Notes: a model not told the origin generated them from the letters alone. DNA of 64,000 nucleotides from Candidatus Multivorans sp. (GCA_965205295.1 OZ242167.1:2898097-2962096), one strand, 5' to 3'; shown: positions 25,912-34,583, counted from the stretch's first letter. Numbers and translations: made by a program.

Positions 25912-26412
25912 TCACGGATCGCCAGCCGCAGCCTCCTTCGCGATCCACAGAAGGTCCGACGGAAGCTGGACATCGGAGCGGCGACGGCCTGTCTCCCGGC
26001 GACCTGGAACGTGAACTGCGTAAAAGAGGCCGCCGTCTGGGCCGAAGCTCACGATCAGCGACCGCGCCCTACCACTTGACCATTGCATGGCCACCCCACC
26101 GTCAGGCTCAGGCACGATCTCGGGCATCGGCACATCGGGCGTGAGGGTCAACAGGGCATCATTCAGGGCGTCCTTCGCGCGACGCGACAACGGCTTGGCT
26201 TCGCCGCCATCCCAGCCGGGACTGGACGTCTCTTCGATGATCTCCCGCAGGTTCCTCACGGCATCCCGCCTTGACAACTGCCACGCGGAGACTGCGGATT
26301 CCGAAGTCTCTTCCTCCCTGACGATTCGAAACGCCTCCGGCCCAACAGCCGTCGAACGACGCCTCCCGAGTTGTCCCACCCAATCCTGAGCTTCCAAACC
26401 AACTAGAGTCAT
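25912..26412 (-). CDS. hypothetical protein (second gene of a three-gene cassette)
   Basis: 166-aa ORF overlapping the stop of the upstream gene by 4 nt (ATGA coupling at 26409-26412). No recognisable domain. Confidence 0.45.
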   Translation of the reverse strand: MTLVGLEAQDWVGQLGRRRSTAVGPEAFRIVREEETSESAVSAWQLSRRDAVRNLREIIEETSSPGWDGGEAKPLSRRAKDALNDALLTLTPDVPMPEIVPEPDGGVAMQWSSGRARSLIVSFGPDGGLFYAVHVPGRRETGRRRSDVQLPSDLLWIAKEAAAGDP

Positions 26413-27176
26413 GCGTACCTCTCGATTCCGTTGGCAGTCAAACTGCTGAAGAAGATCTCGTTCTTCCGGCCGCGAAGTTCGTCAATGCGCGCCCACACGT
26501 CGCAGTCCTCAAAGGCCCCATCTGGCGCCACGGCAAAGGCGTCGATATCGAGGATCACAGTGAACCCCGCCTTCTCTTCTCTAGCCAGGCGGGTCACTGT
26601 CGTCCTCTCGAAGGCGTCGTGACTCGAGACCTGAAGTCGCTCCAGAGACTGCCGAACTTGGCCCTGTCTGAAGCCCAGAGGTTGTCTCAGGGGCTCTACG
26701 AAGATCGTCTCGAAACCGACTCCGGGGGGAACCTGGATCTCGTTGATGTAGCGGACGCCAATCCGCGTAACCCGAACTTCCGACAACAACGACCTGTACG
26801 TCGTCCACAGAGCCTCAGCCTCCGCCCGAAGTTGCGCCCACTTCGTGTAGGGGCGCAGCTTGTTGAAAGTGAAGCCATCAAGGCGAAACTGGACGATCTT
26901 GTCTCCTTGAGAGTTCCTGAAGTGGTAACCACGTAGCGCCGCGGTCGCGGCAACCGCGGGATCAGTGCCTTCCTTCAACTCCGCCGAGACGTTCGCCGCG
27001 TAGTTGTTCCCCTTCTCGGGGAACTCGCTCTCGATCCCCCGATGAGCGGCATCGAATCTGGCCAACAGCTCGGCGTCCTGACCTTCCGGCAACTCGCAGC
27101 GCAGGTCTATCAGCGCCTCGCGAATCGGCGCGTTGGCCAGTGTACGAATGCGATTCGGCCGGGAAGAGTTAGTCAT
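26409..27176 (-). CDS. TIGR04255-like uncharacterised protein (first gene of a three-gene cassette)
   Basis: 255 aa. N-terminus NRIRTLANAPIREALIDLRCELPEG resembles the conserved N-terminal N-A-P-L-x-E-V-x-F-E-I-R-F block of the TIGR04255 family, recognised from memory only. Confidence 0.5.
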   Translation of the reverse strand: MTNSSRPNRIRTLANAPIREALIDLRCELPEGQDAELLARFDAAHRGIESEFPEKGNNYAANVSAELKEGTDPAVAATAALRGYHFRNSQGDKIVQFRLDGFTFNKLRPYTKWAQLRAEAEALWTTYRSLLSEVRVTRIGVRYINEIQVPPGVGFETIFVEPLRQPLGFRQGQVRQSLERLQVSSHDAFERTTVTRLAREEKAGFTVILDIDAFAVAPDGAFEDCDVWARIDELRGRKNEIFFSSLTANGIERYA

Positions 27177-27464: not shown

Positions 27465-29147
27465 ATGCGCCAGCCCCCCCTTCTTCTCACCTCGGTGGCG
27501 CTGACGATCGCCTGCGCTCCGGTGCCTCCGGCCGCGGAAGAGGCCGCGCCCGGCACCCACGACGACCTGCTGCAGCTCTTCGAGGAGTTCCGCGTCTTCC
27601 AGGAACCGGAGATCGTCGACGGCGTGCCCGACTACACCGCCGAGGCGATGGAGCGGCAGCGGCAGGGCCTGGAGGACTACAAGGCCCGGCTCCACGCGAT
27701 CGACATCTCGGACTGGCTGGTCTCCGAGCAGATCGACCACCACCTGGTCCGCGCCGAGATGAACGGGCTCGACTTCCACCACCGGGTGACCCGGCCCTGG
27801 TCGCGCGATCCGGCCTTCTACCTGATGTCCCAGGGCGGCGCCGGACCGGCGATGTCGGGCTTCCGGACCCTCTTCGAACTCGAGCCGCCGTTCGACGACG
27901 GCGAACTGGAGGAGTACCGGACGACCCTGCAGGCGGTGCCGAAGATCTACGAGCAGGCCAGGTCCAACCTGACCGAAGGCGCTTCGGATCTCGCCACGAT
28001 CGCGATCTGGGCCGCGCCTCGGGAGGCGCGCATCTACGACGAGATCGCGGAGCAGCTCGCCGAGCACCACCCCGCACTCGTCCCGGACGCCGAGGCGGCG
28101 CGCGACGCCGTCCTCGCTTTCGGCGGCTGGGTCGAGGAGAACAAGGACTCCATGACCGGCGTCGCCGGCATCGGCAAGGAGAACTACGACTGGTGGCTCC
28201 GCAACGTTCACCTCTCGCCCTACGGCTGGGAGGAGAGCCGGATGATCGTCGAGCAGGAGTACAACCGGCTCGTCACGTTCCTGGCGCTTGAGGAACACCG
28301 TAACCGCGACCTGCCGCCGTTCGACATCGCCGACACGCCGGAGAAGTACGCCGACAACCTCCACGAGGCGCTCGCCTACGTCGTCGAGTTCCTGCGCGAC
28401 GGCGAAGTCATGACCGTGCCGGAGTGGGTCGACGCCACCGACTACAGCGACCCGAACGAGCCGCCGGAGTCGTTACCCTCCGACCCGAGCATCGACCACA
28501 AGGCGCGCGAGCGCGAGATCCTGCCCGGCGAGACCCACGAGTACGTCGGCCACATGCTCGACGGGCAACGGCTCGACCGTGACGAACGGCCGATCCGCGG
28601 CGCCGACCGCCGCTTCAACATGGAGTGGATGCGGATGGAGGGCTGGGCGGTCGCCCTGGAGGAACTCATGATGCAGGCCGGCGTCCTCGACGAACGGCCG
28701 CGCCACGGCCGCGAGGTCGAGTACCTGATGAACATCTCCCACATGAGCCTGGCGCTGCCCGATCTCGCGATGCACGCGAACCTGATCACCTTCGACGAGT
28801 CGCGCAAGCTCTGCGCCGCGTTGATGTCCAAGGGCTGGTCCCAGGAGGACGAACGCATGGTCTGGTACGAGATGGAGTCCAACCTGCGCTTCCCCGGCTT
28901 CCACACCGGGGTCGTCGTCGGCAAGGCCCACTTCATGAAGCTGTTCCGCGAACGGGCAATGCAGCTCGGCGACGACTTCGTGCTCCGTGACTTCATCGAC
29001 GAGTTCCTCGCCGGCGGCATCATCCCGATCTCGCTCATCCGCTGGGAGATGACCGGCTACGACGACGAGATCCGGTTCCTCACCGGCGAGGACGACGTGC
29101 CGAACCGGATGTTCGATCCGGCGCTGCAACTCGCGGACCGGATGTAG
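27465..29147 (+). CDS. DUF885-family protein, lipoprotein
   Basis: RBS AAGGAG at 27452. Lipobox LTIACAP. Sequence features typical of DUF885 (PDYTAEAMERQRQGLEDYKARLHAIDIS..., size ~560 aa). Confidence 0.7.
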   Translation: MRQPPLLLTSVALTIACAPVPPAAEEAAPGTHDDLLQLFEEFRVFQEPEIVDGVPDYTAEAMERQRQGLEDYKARLHAIDISDWLVSEQIDHHLVRAEMNGLDFHHRVTRPWSRDPAFYLMSQGGAGPAMSGFRTLFELEPPFDDGELEEYRTTLQAVPKIYEQARSNLTEGASDLATIAIWAAPREARIYDEIAEQLAEHHPALVPDAEAARDAVLAFGGWVEENKDSMTGVAGIGKENYDWWLRNVHLSPYGWEESRMIVEQEYNRLVTFLALEEHRNRDLPPFDIADTPEKYADNLHEALAYVVEFLRDGEVMTVPEWVDATDYSDPNEPPESLPSDPSIDHKAREREILPGETHEYVGHMLDGQRLDRDERPIRGADRRFNMEWMRMEGWAVALEELMMQAGVLDERPRHGREVEYLMNISHMSLALPDLAMHANLITFDESRKLCAALMSKGWSQEDERMVWYEMESNLRFPGFHTGVVVGKAHFMKLFRERAMQLGDDFVLRDFIDEFLAGGIIPISLIRWEMTGYDDEIRFLTGEDDVPNRMFDPALQLADRM

Positions 29148-29220
29148 GAAGGCTGCCAACCCCCATCCGGGCTAGAACGCGGACCCGGTTGGCGCTCGAC
29201 TCACCGGCTCGGCGAGCGGG

Positions 29221-29280
29221 GCTTGACAACTCGCCCCTTTTTGCCAACAATCTTGTTGCCAACAGATTCGTTGGCATATG
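29221..29280 (+). promoter_or_regulatory. candidate promoter/operator: CTTGACA (-35-like) followed by a direct repeat TTGCCAACA x2 (29241-29249, 29256-29264) and the inverted partner GTTGGCA (29270-29276)
   Basis: Read directly. Lies ~30 nt upstream of the ATG at 29303 of the ATPase-like gene pair. Confidence 0.4.
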
Positions 29281-29302
29281 CCCCCAACGAGGAGAAGGGC
29301 GA

Positions 29303-30244
29303 ATGGCACTGAGAAAGGCGGGTTTCGATGAACTCGCCGTCTCCGAACTGAAGATCAAGCTGCGAGCGGGACTGAACCCCGGTGACTGGCAGCACAAGGG
29401 CGATCTCATCTTCCAGGCGCTCGCGAAGAGCAAGCGGCCGGTTGTACTCGCTGTCGACGAGCTTCCCATTCTCGTCAGCCGGTTGCTGAAGGGGAGTGAC
29501 CAGCGCACTACCGCAGAGCGAACTCAGGCAACTGAAGAGTTCCTGAGTTGGCTGCGCAAGAACGCCCAAGCCCACCGAGGGCGGATCTGTCTGATCCTCT
29601 CCGGCAGCGTCGGCCTCCACCCCATACTCCATCAAGTCGGGTTGACAGCCCAGGCGAACATCTACACCCCCTTCGATCTGAGGCCCTGGAACCAGGAAAC
29701 GGCGACCGACTGCCTCGCCGAGCTGGCGGTGACGTACAACCTCAACCTCTCCCAAGAGGTCCGGGCCAAGATGTGCCGGCACCTGCGCAGCCTGGTACCG
29801 CACCATGTGCAGCAGTTCTTCGACCACCTGCACGAGCACCTGCGGCGCCACCGTCGCCATACTGCCTCGCTCGAGGACGTGGCTCATGTGTACGAGCAGG
29901 AGTTGCTTGGCGTTCGCGGTCAAACGGACCTTGACCACTACGAGAGCCGGCTCAAGGTGGCCTTGGACTCGGAGGGCTACAAGGCTGCACTCGAACTTCT
30001 GACCGAGGCCGCGACGAATGACGGCCTACTTAGCGGCGAAGCCCTCGCCCGTTACAACGTCGACTACGAACGGACTACCTCTATTCAATATGTGTTCCAC
30101 GTCCTCGAGCACGACGGCTATCTTGAGCCGTCGGCAGACGGTCATCGATTCATATCGGGCCTGGTCGAGGACTGGTGGCGAGCCCGCCACGCCCAGCACT
30201 TCGTACCGATTGCTGAACGCGGGCTCTCCAGGGGGACGAACTGA
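29303..30244 (+). CDS. ATPase-like protein lacking a P-loop (Walker B/sensor region only), paralogous to the NTPase domain of the downstream gene
   Basis: RBS GGAG upstream of the ATG at 29303. PVVLAVDELPILVS (Walker-B-like), then RICLILSGSVGLHPIL and TPFDLRPWNQETATDCLAE. The same motif order occurs in the downstream protein (LVLLVENLN...RIALLASATS...LAPLDTDECMILWE). No GxxxxGK[ST] anywhere. Confidence 0.5.
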   Translation: MALRKAGFDELAVSELKIKLRAGLNPGDWQHKGDLIFQALAKSKRPVVLAVDELPILVSRLLKGSDQRTTAERTQATEEFLSWLRKNAQAHRGRICLILSGSVGLHPILHQVGLTAQANIYTPFDLRPWNQETATDCLAELAVTYNLNLSQEVRAKMCRHLRSLVPHHVQQFFDHLHEHLRRHRRHTASLEDVAHVYEQELLGVRGQTDLDHYESRLKVALDSEGYKAALELLTEAATNDGLLSGEALARYNVDYERTTSIQYVFHVLEHDGYLEPSADGHRFISGLVEDWWRARHAQHFVPIAERGLSRGTN

Positions 30245-32844
30245 TGACCGTAGCGACGCGGAAGTTCAACCCGGGATTCCTGACCGAGGACGCACTCGTA
30301 GCTTCCTTTTGCGTACGCACCCGCGAGTTCGAGTCGATCGTCGAGACCCTCCGCGGATGTACCGGGAACTCGAACCAGCACCAGATCGTCATCGGACCGC
30401 GCGGCAGCGGCAAGACGACGCTGCTCCTCCGCGTCGCTGCCGAGATCGGCCGCGACGTCGAACTCGCCCGCAACTTCTTCCCGATTCGATTCGCGGAGGA
30501 GAGCTACGAAGTCTCAACCGCCGGCGAGTTCTGGCTCGAGTGCTTGGCCCAACTCGCCGAGCAAGCGCCTCAAGACAAGGATGAGCCGGACCTGAGTCGA
30601 ACGCTCAAGGAACTGCGAAGTGTCGAAGACGATCAGCTCCTCGCGGATCGTTGCCTCGGAACCCTGCTTGACTACTCCGACCACCAAGGGAAGCGCTTGG
30701 TCCTCCTCGTCGAGAACCTGAACATGATGTTCCGGGACATTGTCGATCCCGATGCGGGCTGGAGGCTGCGTCATACCCTCCAGACCGAATCCCGAATCGC
30801 GTTGCTGGCCAGCGCCACGAGCCGGTTCGGCGAAATTGACAACCCCGACAGTGCCCTCTACGAACTCCTCCGCGTCCACACGCTGGCGCCTCTAGACACC
30901 GACGAATGCATGATCCTCTGGGAAGCAGAATCGGGCGAGTCCCCATCACGCGAGGAGGTCCGACCCTTGGAGATCCTGACCGCCGGCAGCCCACGCCTGC
31001 TGGCGATCGTCGCCCGGACGGGCGCAGGCAGGTCTCTGCGGGACCTGCTGGATCACCTCCTCGATTTGATCGATGACCACACCGAGTACTTCAAGAGCCA
31101 CATCGAGGCGCTTCCGGCGCAGGAGCGCCGCGTCTACCTGGCTCTCGCCGAACTCTGGGAACCGGCGACGACGAAGGAGGTCGCAGGTCGAGCCCGCCTA
31201 GACACGAACAAGTGCAGCGCACAACTCAAGCGCCTGTCCGACCGCGGCGCAGTACGAGTCGTCGGCGGCTCATCACGCCGGAAGCAGTTCTACCTGACGG
31301 AACGGCTCTACAACATCTACTACCTGCTTCGGCGCCATCGAGGCCTGGACCGGCCGGTTCGGGCGCTCCTCCGATTCATGTCGTCGTACTACACAGGCTT
31401 CGAATTGGTGACGGTGATGACTGAGTTCGTCAAAGACACCATCAGACCCCGAACAAGAGTGAACGCCTTGCGAGCCGCGGCGTTGGAACAGCTACCGGAC
31501 TTGGCCAACGCCGAACTCGGGGCGCCCGGATGCACGACAAGCCGCGAACAGGCGCTGCTGAGGCTCGTGGCCGCGTCCGGCCAAATCGCCTACTACCGAC
31601 GCCTCGACCGCCCGGAGGAAGCGCTTGGCGCTTGCGAGGCGGCGCTCACCGCCTTTCAACCCGGCGGCCTTCCAGGGAGATTCAAGTCCGCTCGAACCTT
31701 GAGCGTAAAGGCAGACCTGCTCCGAAGCCTGAGCCGGCACGAAGAAGCCATCGCCGTATGCGATGAGGCCCTGAGGCTTTCGGAACCCGGTGAACACGAG
31801 GTTGCCGCCGCACATGACTTCTTCAACGCCGCGATAGTGGATGTCCTTCACACGAAGGCCACCTCGCTTTGCGAAGTTGGCCGCAACGAGGCCGCAGCCG
31901 ACGCCTACCTTGAAGTCGAGCGTCGATTCGGCGAGAGCGAGAAGATGTCCCACAGAATGGACGCGGCCGCCGCCTTGATCAGCAGAGCCATGATTCTGGA
32001 CGACATGGGCGGTGGCCAAGAGGCTCTGAGCCAGTGTAGTGCGGTTCTTGATCGATTCGGTGCAGTCGGCCAAGCGGAGATGGAGGAGTGGATGGGCTTT
32101 GCGCTGCTGATGAAGGGAGATCTCCTCGACCGCTCGGATAGGCCGAAAGAAGCCCTGGTCGCTCTCGATCAAGCGCTACGGCGATTCGAGAACAGCGACC
32201 TCCCCAAAGCCGACGATTCCGTCCTCGCTACCTTCGCGGCAAAGGGAGCTCTACTCTGGAAGCTGGGGGAAGAAGACGCTGCACGAGCCGCCTTCAACGA
32301 CGCCCTAGAGCGCCTGAGAGGCGAGCAGGCCGATGGCGCCGCGGATTGGCGAGCCAGGGTACAACTCCTGCGGGGCAGTCTGGAGTTGGACTGCAAGGAG
32401 TACGAGAGCGCCCGGAAGGCCGCCAGCGAGGTGTTGGCTCACGACCCCGACGGCGATCCCCAGCTCCGCAGCCGGGCTTTTCTGCTCGGCGCTCGATCCG
32501 CTCTGTTCGACACTCCCGCAGCAGCCGAGAGCGATCTCGCAGCCGCCCTAGACCTGCTGTCGGCCCTGGATTCTCTTCCAGTCGAGACGTTCGACGCTCT
32601 CGCCGAGGCCGCGGTCGAACTCGGTCCGGCCCGCGTCCTCAAGCTGATCGAGGGCTCGGCTTCGGCCGAGTCGCTTCTTCCGCTCACGACGGCGCTGAAA
32701 CTGGAACTTGGACGCGCGCCACGCGTCGCACGCGAGGTGGAGGAAGTAGCCAAGGACATTCGACGAAGCTTGGCGACGGCGAGACGGAAGCGCGGTGCTA
32801 CCGACGAAGAGAACCCAAGACCCGAACGTGAGGAGCCTTCCTGA
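30244..32844 (+). CDS. P-loop NTPase (AAA+/STAND-like) with winged-helix domain and long C-terminal TPR-like array
   Basis: Walker A IVIGPRGSGKTTLLL and Walker B RLVLLVENLN. A wHTH-like segment (PAQERRVYLALAELWEPATTKEVAGRARLDTNKCSAQLKRLSDRGAVRVV). ~500 aa of TPR-like helical repeats. Start overlaps the upstream stop (TGATG). Confidence 0.65.
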   Translation: MTVATRKFNPGFLTEDALVASFCVRTREFESIVETLRGCTGNSNQHQIVIGPRGSGKTTLLLRVAAEIGRDVELARNFFPIRFAEESYEVSTAGEFWLECLAQLAEQAPQDKDEPDLSRTLKELRSVEDDQLLADRCLGTLLDYSDHQGKRLVLLVENLNMMFRDIVDPDAGWRLRHTLQTESRIALLASATSRFGEIDNPDSALYELLRVHTLAPLDTDECMILWEAESGESPSREEVRPLEILTAGSPRLLAIVARTGAGRSLRDLLDHLLDLIDDHTEYFKSHIEALPAQERRVYLALAELWEPATTKEVAGRARLDTNKCSAQLKRLSDRGAVRVVGGSSRRKQFYLTERLYNIYYLLRRHRGLDRPVRALLRFMSSYYTGFELVTVMTEFVKDTIRPRTRVNALRAAALEQLPDLANAELGAPGCTTSREQALLRLVAASGQIAYYRRLDRPEEALGACEAALTAFQPGGLPGRFKSARTLSVKADLLRSLSRHEEAIAVCDEALRLSEPGEHEVAAAHDFFNAAIVDVLHTKATSLCEVGRNEAAADAYLEVERRFGESEKMSHRMDAAAALISRAMILDDMGGGQEALSQCSAVLDRFGAVGQAEMEEWMGFALLMKGDLLDRSDRPKEALVALDQALRRFENSDLPKADDSVLATFAAKGALLWKLGEEDAARAAFNDALERLRGEQADGAADWRARVQLLRGSLELDCKEYESARKAASEVLAHDPDGDPQLRSRAFLLGARSALFDTPAAAESDLAAALDLLSALDSLPVETFDALAEAAVELGPARVLKLIEGSASAESLLPLTTALKLELGRAPRVAREVEEVAKDIRRSLATARRKRGATDEENPRPEREEPS

Positions 32845-32845
32845 C

Positions 32846-33892
32846 ATGCAATACCGAACCCTCGGCCGCACCGGCCTGAAGGTCTCGCCGCTCGGGCTCG
32901 GCACGAGCAACTTCGGCGATGTGACGCCCGAGGACGAGGCGCGGCGGATCATCGAGCGGACGCTCGACTCCGGGGTCAACCTGATCGACCTCGGCCACAT
33001 CTACGGCGATGGCAAAGCCGAGCGGATCGTCGGCAGTGTGCTCAAGGAGAGCGGCCGGCGGCACGAGGTCCTGATCTCGACCAAGATCTACCCCGGCGAG
33101 TTCGATGACGACACTGGTCTCGCCCGGTCGGAGCATGTGCCGGGGCACAACGCGAACGAGCAGGGACTCTCCCGGGCCGGGATCCTCAACGCCTGCGACG
33201 CGGCCCTGCGCCGCCTGCAAACGGACCACATCGACCTGTACCAGACGCACCGGCCGGACTTCGGCATCCCCATCGACGAGACGCTGCGTGCGTTCGACGA
33301 CCTGGTCCGGGCCGGCAAGGTCCGGTACATCGGCTGCTCGACCTACCCCGCCTGGAGCGTGATGGAAGCGCTGATGGTGAGCGAGCTGAAGGGGTACGTC
33401 CGCTTCTCGTCCGAGCAGGCGCCCTACAACCTGCTCGACCGGCGGATCGAGAACGAGCTGATCCCGCTCTGCCGCAAGCACGGTCTCGGCATTCTCGCCT
33501 GGGCGCCCCTCGGCATGGGCGTGCTGGCGGGGAGGTACTCCGATGCGGCGAAGTACCCGGAAGGCTCCCGCGCCGACCTGCTCGGCAAGTACTACGCGCG
33601 GCGGGTCACGAAGCGCGCCATCCAGGTCGGCGTCGAGTTCGCCAAGCTCGCGGCCGAGGCCGGGATCACGCCGGCCCAGCTCGCGATCCTGTGGTGCAAG
33701 GACCAGCCAGGGATCACGGCGCCGCTTATCGGCCCGCGGACCTGCGAACACTTCGACGAACTCGTCGCCGTCCAGGAGATGACGCTCGACCCCGAGATCG
33801 CAGCCGCCTGCGACGCCCTGGTACCGCCCGGGAGCGCGGTGTCGGACTTCCACAACACCTCGGGGTGGATGAAGACCCAGCTCACCTGGTAG
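32846..33892 (+). CDS. aldo/keto reductase (paralog of 1721..2773)
   Basis: ATG at 32846 with AGGAG at 32831. MQYRTLGRTGLKVSPLGLGTSNFGD. Highly similar in sequence and length to the first AKR. Confidence 0.85.
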   Translation: MQYRTLGRTGLKVSPLGLGTSNFGDVTPEDEARRIIERTLDSGVNLIDLGHIYGDGKAERIVGSVLKESGRRHEVLISTKIYPGEFDDDTGLARSEHVPGHNANEQGLSRAGILNACDAALRRLQTDHIDLYQTHRPDFGIPIDETLRAFDDLVRAGKVRYIGCSTYPAWSVMEALMVSELKGYVRFSSEQAPYNLLDRRIENELIPLCRKHGLGILAWAPLGMGVLAGRYSDAAKYPEGSRADLLGKYYARRVTKRAIQVGVEFAKLAAEAGITPAQLAILWCKDQPGITAPLIGPRTCEHFDELVAVQEMTLDPEIAAACDALVPPGSAVSDFHNTSGWMKTQLTW

Positions 33893-33930
33893 GAGAATCC
33901 ACCGAGCGGTTATGGCAGTATTGCCGCGTT

Positions 33931-34212
33931 ATGGTCAAGGTCACCTACTCCCTCGACGACGCCACCGTTCGCCGCATCCGCCGGACCGCTGAGCGGCTCG
34001 GCAAGCCGCAGAGTCAGGTCGTCCGCGAGGCGGTAGCCGACTTCGCCGCCCGGGCCGACCGGCTGAGCGAGGTCGAGCGCCTTCGCATGCTGAAAGTGAT
34101 CAGCGACCTCCGCGAGGCGCCGCCGACGCGGTCGAGAGAGGAAACGAACGCCGAACTGCGGGATATCCGCGCCTCGCGGCGGTTCGGATGGCGCAGGGAA
34201 ACGGGTCCGTGA
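33931..34212 (+). CDS. vapB: ribbon-helix-helix (CopG-like) VapB-type antitoxin
   Basis: MVKVTYSLDDATVRRIRRTAERLGKPQSQVVREAV is an RHH N-terminus. Stop overlaps the start of the PIN gene (TGATG). Confidence 0.6.
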   Translation: MVKVTYSLDDATVRRIRRTAERLGKPQSQVVREAVADFAARADRLSEVERLRMLKVISDLREAPPTRSREETNAELRDIRASRRFGWRRETGP

Positions 34213-34583
34213 TGGTCCACCTGGACACGTCGGCCCTGGTTGGGGCGCTGACGGGTCCACATGATTCGATCAACCGCCTGTTCGCACTCGTCGACGAAGG
34301 GCACCGGCTGGCGCTCTCCTCCATCGTTCTCTACGAGTGGTTGCGGGGGCCGCGGCGGATGCCGGAGCTGCAGGCGCAGGAGGAGCTCTTTCCCTCGGCC
34401 GCCGCCGTCCCATTCGACGCCGAAGCGGCAGCGCGCGCGGCCGTGATCTACGGCGCCGTAACGAACCCCCGCGGCCGCGAGGCGGACATCGCCATCGCGG
34501 CCTGCGCGATCGTCCACGACGCGGCGATCTGGACGCTGAACCCGGCCGATTTCGACGACGTGCCAGGGCTCGAACTGGTGTAG
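34212..34583 (+). CDS. vapC: PIN-domain toxin VapC
   Basis: MVHLDTSALV N-terminal PIN motif; ~124 aa; distal acidic residues present. Confidence 0.75.
   Translation: MVHLDTSALVGALTGPHDSINRLFALVDEGHRLALSSIVLYEWLRGPRRMPELQAQEELFPSAAAVPFDAEAAARAAVIYGAVTNPRGREADIAIAACAIVHDAAIWTLNPADFDDVPGLELV

Follow-up and report, generated by a model that had tools for sequence, protein, structure and literature searches.

A recurrent ATPase-STAND gene pair with an iteron operator, and a deletion allele of its ATPase gene, in Candidatus Multivorans

Several described prokaryotic systems resemble in part a two-gene cassette, here called A-B, that lies in a 64,000-nt stretch of DNA from Candidatus Multivorans sp. 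(the window; all coordinates are counted from its first letter). Overall, A-B is best explained, with modest confidence, as an autoregulated, mobile STAND sensor module of the conflict or defence type whose gene A has decayed in this genome. Closest in architecture are the Avs/AVAST and bNACHT proteins. Gene B likewise has a P-loop nucleotide-binding domain, a GxP helical domain (GSPRL), a winged helix and a variable TPR-like sensor, and the distribution of A-B is patchy and horizontal, sometimes beside defence genes. In contrast to Avs/AVAST, the A-B family has no fused effector (nuclease, protease, SIR2 or TIR) and no match to an Avs or NLR hidden Markov model. Furthermore, the Walker B position of B is E-N, and the main clade carries an obligate second ATPase and a travelling iteron operator.

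The MalT/LAL and AfsR/SARP regulators share with B an ATP-switch NTPase joined to a TPR-like sensor, and the evidence also suggests sequence-specific DNA sites at the promoter of the B cassette. However, B has neither a LuxR-type helix-turn-helix nor a SARP/BTAD domain (Pfam, E-values up to 1). DNA binding by B would need the internal winged helix, a second ATPase is co-encoded, and no target operon except its own is conserved beside A-B in the 80 loci examined below. Full-length A scores at or near the Pfam cut-off for PF01637, the family of PABY2304 (PDB 2qen) and SSO1545 (PDB 2fna), but shares only 16-18% identity with these proteins, and the window copy lacks the whole P-loop half. To our knowledge, neither PABY2304 nor SSO1545 has an established function or partner. 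Septu is, like A-B, a two-gene cassette containing an ATPase, and the two are physically linked in 13 of the 80 loci. They are not homologous, however: PtuA is an ABC-type ATPase and PtuB an HNH nuclease, and A-B has its own promoter and operator between PtuB and A-B. The window itself contains no PtuA or PtuB.

Searches of PADLOC (PADLOC-DB 2.0.0), NCBIfam and Pfam with A, B, full-length relatives and distant plasmid homologs returned no match at the level of a system or regulator family. PADLOC gave P-loop-level matches only (best mad8, E-value 1e-4) and none to an Avs or NLR model, and single-sequence and profile searches of the PDB found P-loop and TPR similarity only. Among the genes of the related loci, only neighbours of A-B matched an anti-phage system of PADLOC, as Septu. 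No description of the pair appeared in the literature searched (STAND/TPR, Septu/PtuA, nSTAND, PF01637 and sponge symbionts). A first-pass annotation of this DNA had suggested a candidate new system: the absence of a PADLOC, Pfam, NCBIfam or literature name agrees with that suggestion, whereas the inactive-paralog architecture on which it was built does not stand (see below). Gene B may fall within one of the 589 clades of a STAND census (Lee et al. 2026, PMC13581612).

The A-B cassette and its operator

The locus is organized as follows:

29223 to 29251, + strand: sigma-70-type promoter, with -35 element TTGACA (29223-29228), 17-nt spacer and -10 element AACAAT (29246-29251)
29240 to 29278, + strand: operator of three iterons at 15-bp spacing, overlapping the promoter
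29240, + strand: iteron 1, TTTGCCAAC, overlapping the -10 element
29255, + strand: iteron 2, GTTGCCAAC, over the expected transcription start
29270, + strand: iteron 3, GTTGGCAta, a half-site (GTTGGCA at 29270-29276)
29241 to 29249 and 29256 to 29264: repeat unit TTGCCAACA
29291 to 29299, + strand: Shine-Dalgarno-like sequence GGAGAAGGG, 4 nt 5' of the gene A ATG and kept in loci L001, L002 and L005
29303 to 30244, + strand: gene A remnant, 313 residues, ATG start in a frame open from 29189; PF01637-type ATPase without residues 8-111
30244 to 32844, + strand: gene B, 866 residues; effector-less STAND-like NTPase, apparently intact

The first-pass observations were partly confirmed. The two open reading frames (ORFs) lie on the + strand and overlap by TGATG (30242-30246), the repeats stand upstream of them, and the pair is flanked by a DUF885 gene and an aldo-keto reductase (AKR) gene, all as described. 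The segment had also been called richer in A/T, and a windowed run made the difference stronger than it had seemed: the G+C content of the module is 0.630 vs 0.674 ± 0.019 for the window, within the lowest 0.7% of 3.7-kb windows, and G+C at third codon positions is 0.74-0.76 vs 0.93-0.94 in both flanking genes. The A-B segment is compositionally foreign and horizontally acquired.

A genome scan detected 341 loci with relatives of A. The best 80, all in metagenome-assembled genomes (MAGs), were examined; they span Acidobacteriota, Latescibacterota, Chloroflexota, Binatia, Gemmatimonadota, Alpha- and Gammaproteobacteria and Spirochaetia. A homolog of B follows A in all 80, on the same strand and starting at most ~100 nt past the A stop codon or overlapping it. 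With the TGATG overlap, this bears out the suspected coupling, and A-B is a real, conserved, translationally coupled two-gene unit. No third gene is conserved with it: when all ORFs within ±10 kb were clustered, the next cluster reached at most 12 of the 80 loci. Placement of B in a known regulator family, with A missing from homologous loci, had been named as evidence against a new system. No such family was found for B, and the pair was kept throughout the loci found through A (80 of 80, plus 41 metagenome loci).

In most cases the cassette is a single insertion in a chromosome of 3-7 Mb. Across phyla, identity to the proteins of the window clade is 58-64% for A and 63-71% for the NTPase/winged-helix part of B. 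The TPR part of B is ~30% identical and widely variable in length, and the last ~90 residues are conserved again. On Clostridium plasmids the pair persists at 21-26% identity, with the FxP N-terminal motif, the VENL strand and GSPRL. The cassette recurs across about eight major lineages and appears to be mobile. The MAG names alone suggest, as an unconfirmed hint, a bias toward sponge-symbiont habitats. Several loci of Gammaproteobacteria and Binatia (L049, L052, L061, L085 and L068, at ~14-21 kb) contain a second, inverted A'-B' pair, 40-50% identical, and/or a second PtuA-PtuB; in L049 and L052 the second pair is accompanied by GTTG[TA]CAAC iterons. With second pairs lying beside the first, paralogous cassettes thus cluster together.

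The promoter agrees with the consensus at 10 of 12 positions, and no other promoter-like site occurs in 28900-33200. In 45 of the 80 loci, TTGACA (at most one mismatch) occurs within 50 nt 5' of the first iteron. The operator contains the only site pair at 15-bp spacing in the 64-kb window. Over the 80 loci, GTTG[GC]CAAC (at most one mismatch) reaches 15.9 per kb in the 110 nt 5' of A vs 0.21 per kb elsewhere, and 55 of 61 spacings between successive sites are exactly 15 bp. This 74-fold enrichment, far above what chance would give, establishes the upstream repeat, at first only operator-like, as a real and conserved element. The consensus is (a/t)t(t/c)GTTG[C/G]CAACaa(a/t), with a palindromic core, and two to four chained copies are present in 70 of the 80 loci. 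The divergent inverted second pairs carry GTTG[TA]CAAC at the same 15-bp spacing, and the Clostridium pair carries tandem TTTA[CG]TAAACAAA; therefore, the cis element co-evolves with the proteins. Expanded arrays were noted 5' of position 10001 in L053 (at least seven copies of ggaatcgatggcaac) and in L031 (five copies of aaattcgttggaaa[cg]).

A blind metagenome scan with the three-iteron pattern returned at least 120 matches. In 41 of the 120 matches listed, a homolog of A (31-58% identical) begins 20-140 nt further on and is followed by B; the others include many coding repeats of 15 nt and a few orphan intergenic arrays. The scan brought out no further target family that would point to an iteron regulon. 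Operator-like intergenic arrays with AT-rich spacers and no A or B homolog nearby were seen in L133, L116, L143 and L153; that of L133 (1374-1418) lies between an RNase H-like gene and a 76-residue ORF. In a clade of B-only relatives (40% identical) on plasmids of Agrobacterium and Sphingobium, no A lies within 8 kb, yet the same iterons stand upstream. Since these relatives keep the iterons without A, the winged helix of B is the most economical candidate binder, and the co-occurrence makes B the likely iteron binder.

The following parts of gene B were delineated:

30394 to 30417, + strand: Walker A, GPRGSGKT, residues 51-58; G51, P52, R53, G54, G56, K57 and T58 invariant in 33 homologs
30697 to 30717, + strand: Walker-B-like strand, LVLLVEN, residues 152-158; E-N replaces D-E/D; L152, V153, V156, E157 and N158 invariant
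31114 to 31296, + strand: winged helix-turn-helix, residues 291-351; candidate iteron-binding domain
31441 to 32568, + strand: TPR-like sensor array, residues about 400-775; the variable part of the family
32581 to 32811, + strand: conserved C-terminal helical domain, residues 780-856; identity stays at 40-57% in relatives with a short or divergent TPR array

Pfam and an AlphaFold2 model agree with the earlier description of B as STAND-like: it has a nucleotide-binding domain, GxP helical domain, winged helix and TPR array and no fused effector. AAA_16 scores 35.5 bits (cut-off 32.6), AAA_22 also matches, and TPR_12, TPR_1, TPR_2 and TPR_8 lie above their cut-offs (TPR span, residues 446-740). 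Residues 293-347 match TrmB at 24.8 bits (E-value 2e-5), just below the cut-off of 25.6, with weaker matches to HTH_20 and DUF7342 and weak Csa3/CARF-winged-helix-like matches in PADLOC. In the model, an alpha/beta NTPase region precedes a confidently predicted helical solenoid that runs from residue ~400 to 856. Both Walker motifs had been reported as intact: this holds for Walker A, GPRGSGKT, but the second strand, LLVEN, is not the canonical hhhhD[DE] (it is IVENL in the Clostridium homolog, 21% identical). The GxP motif GSPRL (residues 247-251) is near-invariant and is followed by the winged helix, in agreement with the secondary structure of the model. At its N-terminus B has the motif FNPGF. 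The winged-helix stretch is rich in invariant residues, including R295, R296, R330, R334, R346 and K347, and the C-terminal domain contributes S805, L812, P813, A817, L818, G823, V828, E831, V835, A836, D838 and L843. The ratio of nonsynonymous to synonymous divergence (dN/dS) is 0.25-0.31 for gene B as a whole and 0.15-0.22 for its NTPase part.

The curated STAND models all score below cut-off against B (nSTAND_NTPase5, 24.4 bits against 34; NACHT, 15.3 against 26.7). Among relatives of B, only one from Moraxella, 27% identical, reaches NACHT (E-value 3.5e-7). This protein is encoded on Moraxella osloensis plasmid p4 (L093, 7001-10055), where a 321-residue ORF overlaps its gene upstream; the ORF has no Pfam match, is unlike A and could be an alternative partner. 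The NTPase/winged-helix module of B is found in 1401 cluster representatives (E-values up to 1e-30). In nearly all of the top 150 of these (~300 to 1589 residues) the NTPase module begins at residue 1, and the family as a whole therefore lacks an N-terminal effector.

The deletion allele of gene A

The remnant of gene A in the window has these features:

29324 to 29325, + strand: deletion junction, GCGGGTT joined to TCGATGA; 312 nt gone, in frame and with no microhomology, by DNA comparison with L001, L002, L003, L006 and L007
29456 to 29461, + strand: Walker B, D52-E53 (VVLAVDELP)
about 30023 to 30190, + strand: C-terminal winged helix

As the first-pass annotation had noticed, the window protein has a Walker B motif and no Walker A. 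A homology search with gene A retrieved 2555 relatives, and nearly all of the best 120 are 415-425 residues long, with matches to PF01637, PF13401 and PF13191. The near-invariant Walker A TAQRRMGKTS is present in all 22 aligned relatives, so that only the window protein lacks the block in the 23-member family alignment. In P0002, which is 83% identical to the window protein, the N-terminus runs MALRKAGSNWVDGDRFF...TAQRRMGKTS...HVDELSVSEAKIKLRAG; the window protein reads MALRKAG-FDELAVSELKIKLRAG, with MALRKAG joined straight to DELAVSE. Residues 8-111, including GKTS, are deleted, a change private to the window allele among the aligned relatives. An assembly artefact was considered as the source of the 312-bp gap and rejected. 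A second, non-identical assembly (P0241, a 37-kb contig) has the same junction, with two other substitutions that are both conservative residue changes; therefore, the deletion is not an artefact of assembly. A search for the exact junction in JGI metagenomes returned nothing.

According to a model of the full-length protein (pLDDT, the predicted local distance difference test score, 79), the lost segment comprises strand beta-1, the P-loop/Walker A, helix alpha-1, strand beta-2 and the helices that follow; the deleted span covers E36-39, H46-60 and E64-69. Judged from this model, what remains is unable to form the nucleotide-binding core and can no longer act as an NTPase. Full-length relatives score 34.7 bits (P0030) and 32.5 bits (P0002) against PF01637 (cut-off 33.2), and full-length A has both the PF01637 ATPase_2 match and the fold. 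The window copy has no intact P-loop domain and gave no PF01637 match in the Pfam scan.

These findings contradict the proposal that the system is built from an inactive, P-loop-less paralog and an active NTPase: relatives of A have ~417 residues and a Walker A, and the window copy has suffered a deletion. Nor does A mirror B as a close paralog, a relationship that was rejected because hhalign aligned the P-loop stretch alone, at a probability of 22%. By its motifs, the family of A is the one with canonical ATPase elements (GKTS and DE) and B the one with an odd Walker B (E-N), the reverse of the picture first drawn. We are highly confident of the module anatomy described above together with the identification of window gene A as a decayed allele of a normally intact ~417-residue ATPase.

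Related MAGs of Thermoanaerobaculia and 'Ca. Multivorans' share the gene order DUF885-A-B-AKR, and the DUF885 and AKR flanks are limited to the Thermoanaerobaculia clade. Four of these loci illustrate the fate of the cassette:

L214: B at least 90% identical to the window; A split by an IS21 element (IstA/IstB); B of 866 residues
L003: B 89% identical; A intact, 417 residues; B of 866 residues; the closest relative with an intact locus
L005: B 85% identical; A with a separate 455-nt out-of-frame deletion; B of 867 residues
L007: B 78% identical (first 476 residues); A intact; B shortened to 667 residues

Sister lineages disrupted A independently by two other routes, the 455-nt deletion in L005 and the IS21 insertion in L214. 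Other B fragments, of 575 residues, exist. Within the clade, the flanking proteins are 90-94% identical, A 74-88% and B 55-89%, and the window differs from L003 by a synonymous divergence (dS) of 0.50 in A and 0.22 in B. The cassette therefore shows quicker turnover or recombination than the DNA around it. The dS contrast between A and B suggests recombination inside the cassette among close relatives.

Genomic context and possible functions

Septu (PtuA, E-value 7e-115; PtuB, E-value 2e-55) lies within ~7 kb of A-B in 13 of the 80 loci, from Latescibacterota, Binatia and Alpha- and Gammaproteobacteria, and directly adjoins it in about nine of the 13. The usual order is PtuA-PtuB-A-B on one strand; sometimes Septu is downstream, and some copies are remnants. 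By rough estimate rather than computation, chance would produce such adjacency in well below one locus. B-only relatives adjoin a cyclase with ThiF, or a cyclase with a Pycsar effector, together with AbiE, Fic and Tn3 on conjugative plasmids. Distant A-B pairs adjoin DUF262, WYL, DUF3800, GIY-YIG and integrase genes. On two Agrobacterium plasmids (L091 and L216, 3286-7959), a conserved block of genes for a ThiF-like adenylyltransferase and two cyclase-domain proteins is divergent from a B-only gene, and the iterons lie in the 160 nt between them; the DNA on either side is not the same in the two plasmids.

In the autoregulated sensor module that we favour, B would bind the iterons through its winged helix and repress its own operon. 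The TPR array would bind a protein ligand, most likely a phage or mobile-element protein given the contexts described. Ligand and ATP would switch or oligomerise B, by analogy with other STAND proteins, and switched B would alter operator occupancy and engage A. Gene A would supply the ATP-driven output component, because it is the sole partner with canonical hydrolysis motifs (GKTS and DE). In the window, B, promoter and operator are apparently intact, and only the sensor/regulator half formed by B could still act in this genome, as in the natural B-only relatives. We propose a defence role for A-B tentatively, as a possibility that is still somewhat doubtful.

A more specific version, which we regard as speculative and unlikely, is that intact A-B constitutes an undescribed prokaryotic immune module, composed of an effector-less STAND/TPR receptor that represses its own iteron operator and a dedicated PF01637-type partner. 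Output would then pass through the AAA+ partner A and not through a nuclease, protease or NADase. Sensing of an invader protein would cause derepression and/or co-assembly with A, and A would act on DNA or consume ATP to stop infection. Recurrent knock-outs of A with B kept would reflect the cost of the effector.

Several observations weigh against the sensor-module account. We infer DNA binding by B from co-occurrence; a winged helix is what any STAND NTPase normally has as its third domain, and A contains one as well. The NTPase part of B was modelled at low confidence (pLDDT 40-60 in places). No enzymatic or membrane effector is recognisable in A or B, and the output step is conjecture. Most genes directly beside A-B have metabolic or housekeeping roles (acetate kinase, hydrolases, cupins and transporters), and the cassette is not consistently located in defence islands. 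Relatives of A were absent from IMG/VR viral contigs and relatives of B from GenBank phages; a phage origin of the cassette was rejected on the same grounds. Finally, the dN/dS of the A remnant is 0.21-0.28, not above that of intact-relative pairs, so that drift as a pseudogene is not demonstrated. The deletion may be recent, or the remnant may still be constrained and might retain a role.

The strongest alternative, although we consider it rather unlikely, is that A-B is a non-defence regulator pair in which B is a MalT- or AfsR-like STAND regulator that binds the iterons and A is its co-regulator. A ligand from the cell or the environment would lead the pair to control its own promoter and perhaps other iteron promoters. 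The overlap of a conserved operator with the promoter would suit such a role, as would the TrmB-like winged helix of B and a TPR array resembling MalT domain III and the Rap proteins. The lack of an effector domain in A and B and the mostly metabolic neighbourhood point the same way. So do the iterons in the divergent region shared with the cyclase operon on Agrobacterium plasmids and the orphan arrays with no A or B nearby, such as that of L133. However, many 'orphan' arrays prove to be coding repeats of 15 nt, the 80 loci show no conserved target gene next to the cassette, and no dedicated output DNA-binding domain, whether LuxR, SARP or another, was found in B. A patchy, multi-phylum distribution, foreign composition and faster evolution than the flanks also argue against a regulator pair, as do the repeated inactivation of the cassette in close relatives and its recurrence beside Septu and other defence or mobile genes.

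We regard it as improbable that the 313-residue remnant of A is functional and maintained, in this lineage only, as a P-loop-less adaptor or regulator with a helical and a winged-helix part that acts with B. The deletion is exactly in frame, and the start codon, Shine-Dalgarno sequence and TGATG coupling are retained. The dN/dS equals that of intact relatives, giving no excess that would indicate relaxed selection, and two assemblies, set apart by just two conservative residue changes, share the allele. Yet an in-frame outcome has a one-in-three chance, and pairwise dN/dS mostly reflects the history before the deletion. With the central strand beta-1 and the P-loop gone, the half nucleotide-binding domain is predicted to be unlikely to fold. 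Sister genomes destroy A (frameshifting deletion, IS21) and leave B intact, which points to loss of function, and no other P-loop-less A was found among the 120 best homologs, fragments apart.

Very improbable is a role for A-B in the replication, maintenance or target selection of a mobile element, with A as an ORC/Cdc6- or TnsC-like AAA+ protein and the iterons as origin or target. Tandem iterons do lie beside the gene, as in iteron plasmids and archaeal origins, and some relatives are on plasmids. However, the closest matches by fold are PF01637 proteins and NLR/CED-4 rather than initiators, and no match to the orc1/cdc6 family model was obtained. The iterons occupy the operator position between the -35 element and the start codon and accompany B-only genes too. 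The cassette has no conserved transposase, integrase, Rep or Par gene with it, and most copies are single insertions in the chromosome.

The autoregulated sensor module, decayed here in A, is thus the reading we retain, and the interpretation offered by the first-pass annotation is partly supported.

Two other features of the window were noted. Overlapping ORFs of 166 and 255 residues on the - strand (25912-27176) have no Pfam match and lie in a second low-G+C patch (0.60-0.62); the smaller protein has a weak PADLOC match to PDC-M32A (E-value 2.6e-5). The pair occurs at the same place in L005 and is absent from L003, L006 and L002, and therefore represents another variable cassette. Just 3' of the AKR gene, a ribbon-helix-helix and PIN-domain pair on the + strand (33928-34583) resembles a VapBC toxin-antitoxin; L003 and L214 also have a ribbon-helix-helix gene downstream of AKR.

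Meaning for the family

The window carries a caution, in that one genome can present a decayed allele as an apparent architecture. Beyond this, A-B is a strictly conserved and horizontally spread cassette, unnamed in the libraries searched, which joins an effector-less STAND receptor, a second ATPase and a portable operator. Cultured relatives on Agrobacterium, Sphingobium and Clostridium plasmids, among them homologs from Agrobacterium pAtCFBP7129a, Sphingobium baderi and Clostridium estertheticum pCF003-70, make either a defensive or a regulatory reading directly testable. If defensive, the cassette would be a case of NLR-like sensors signalling with no effector fused to them, and immune sensing would be tied to transcriptional autoregulation. 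If regulatory, it would represent a new class of mobile STAND transcription switch.

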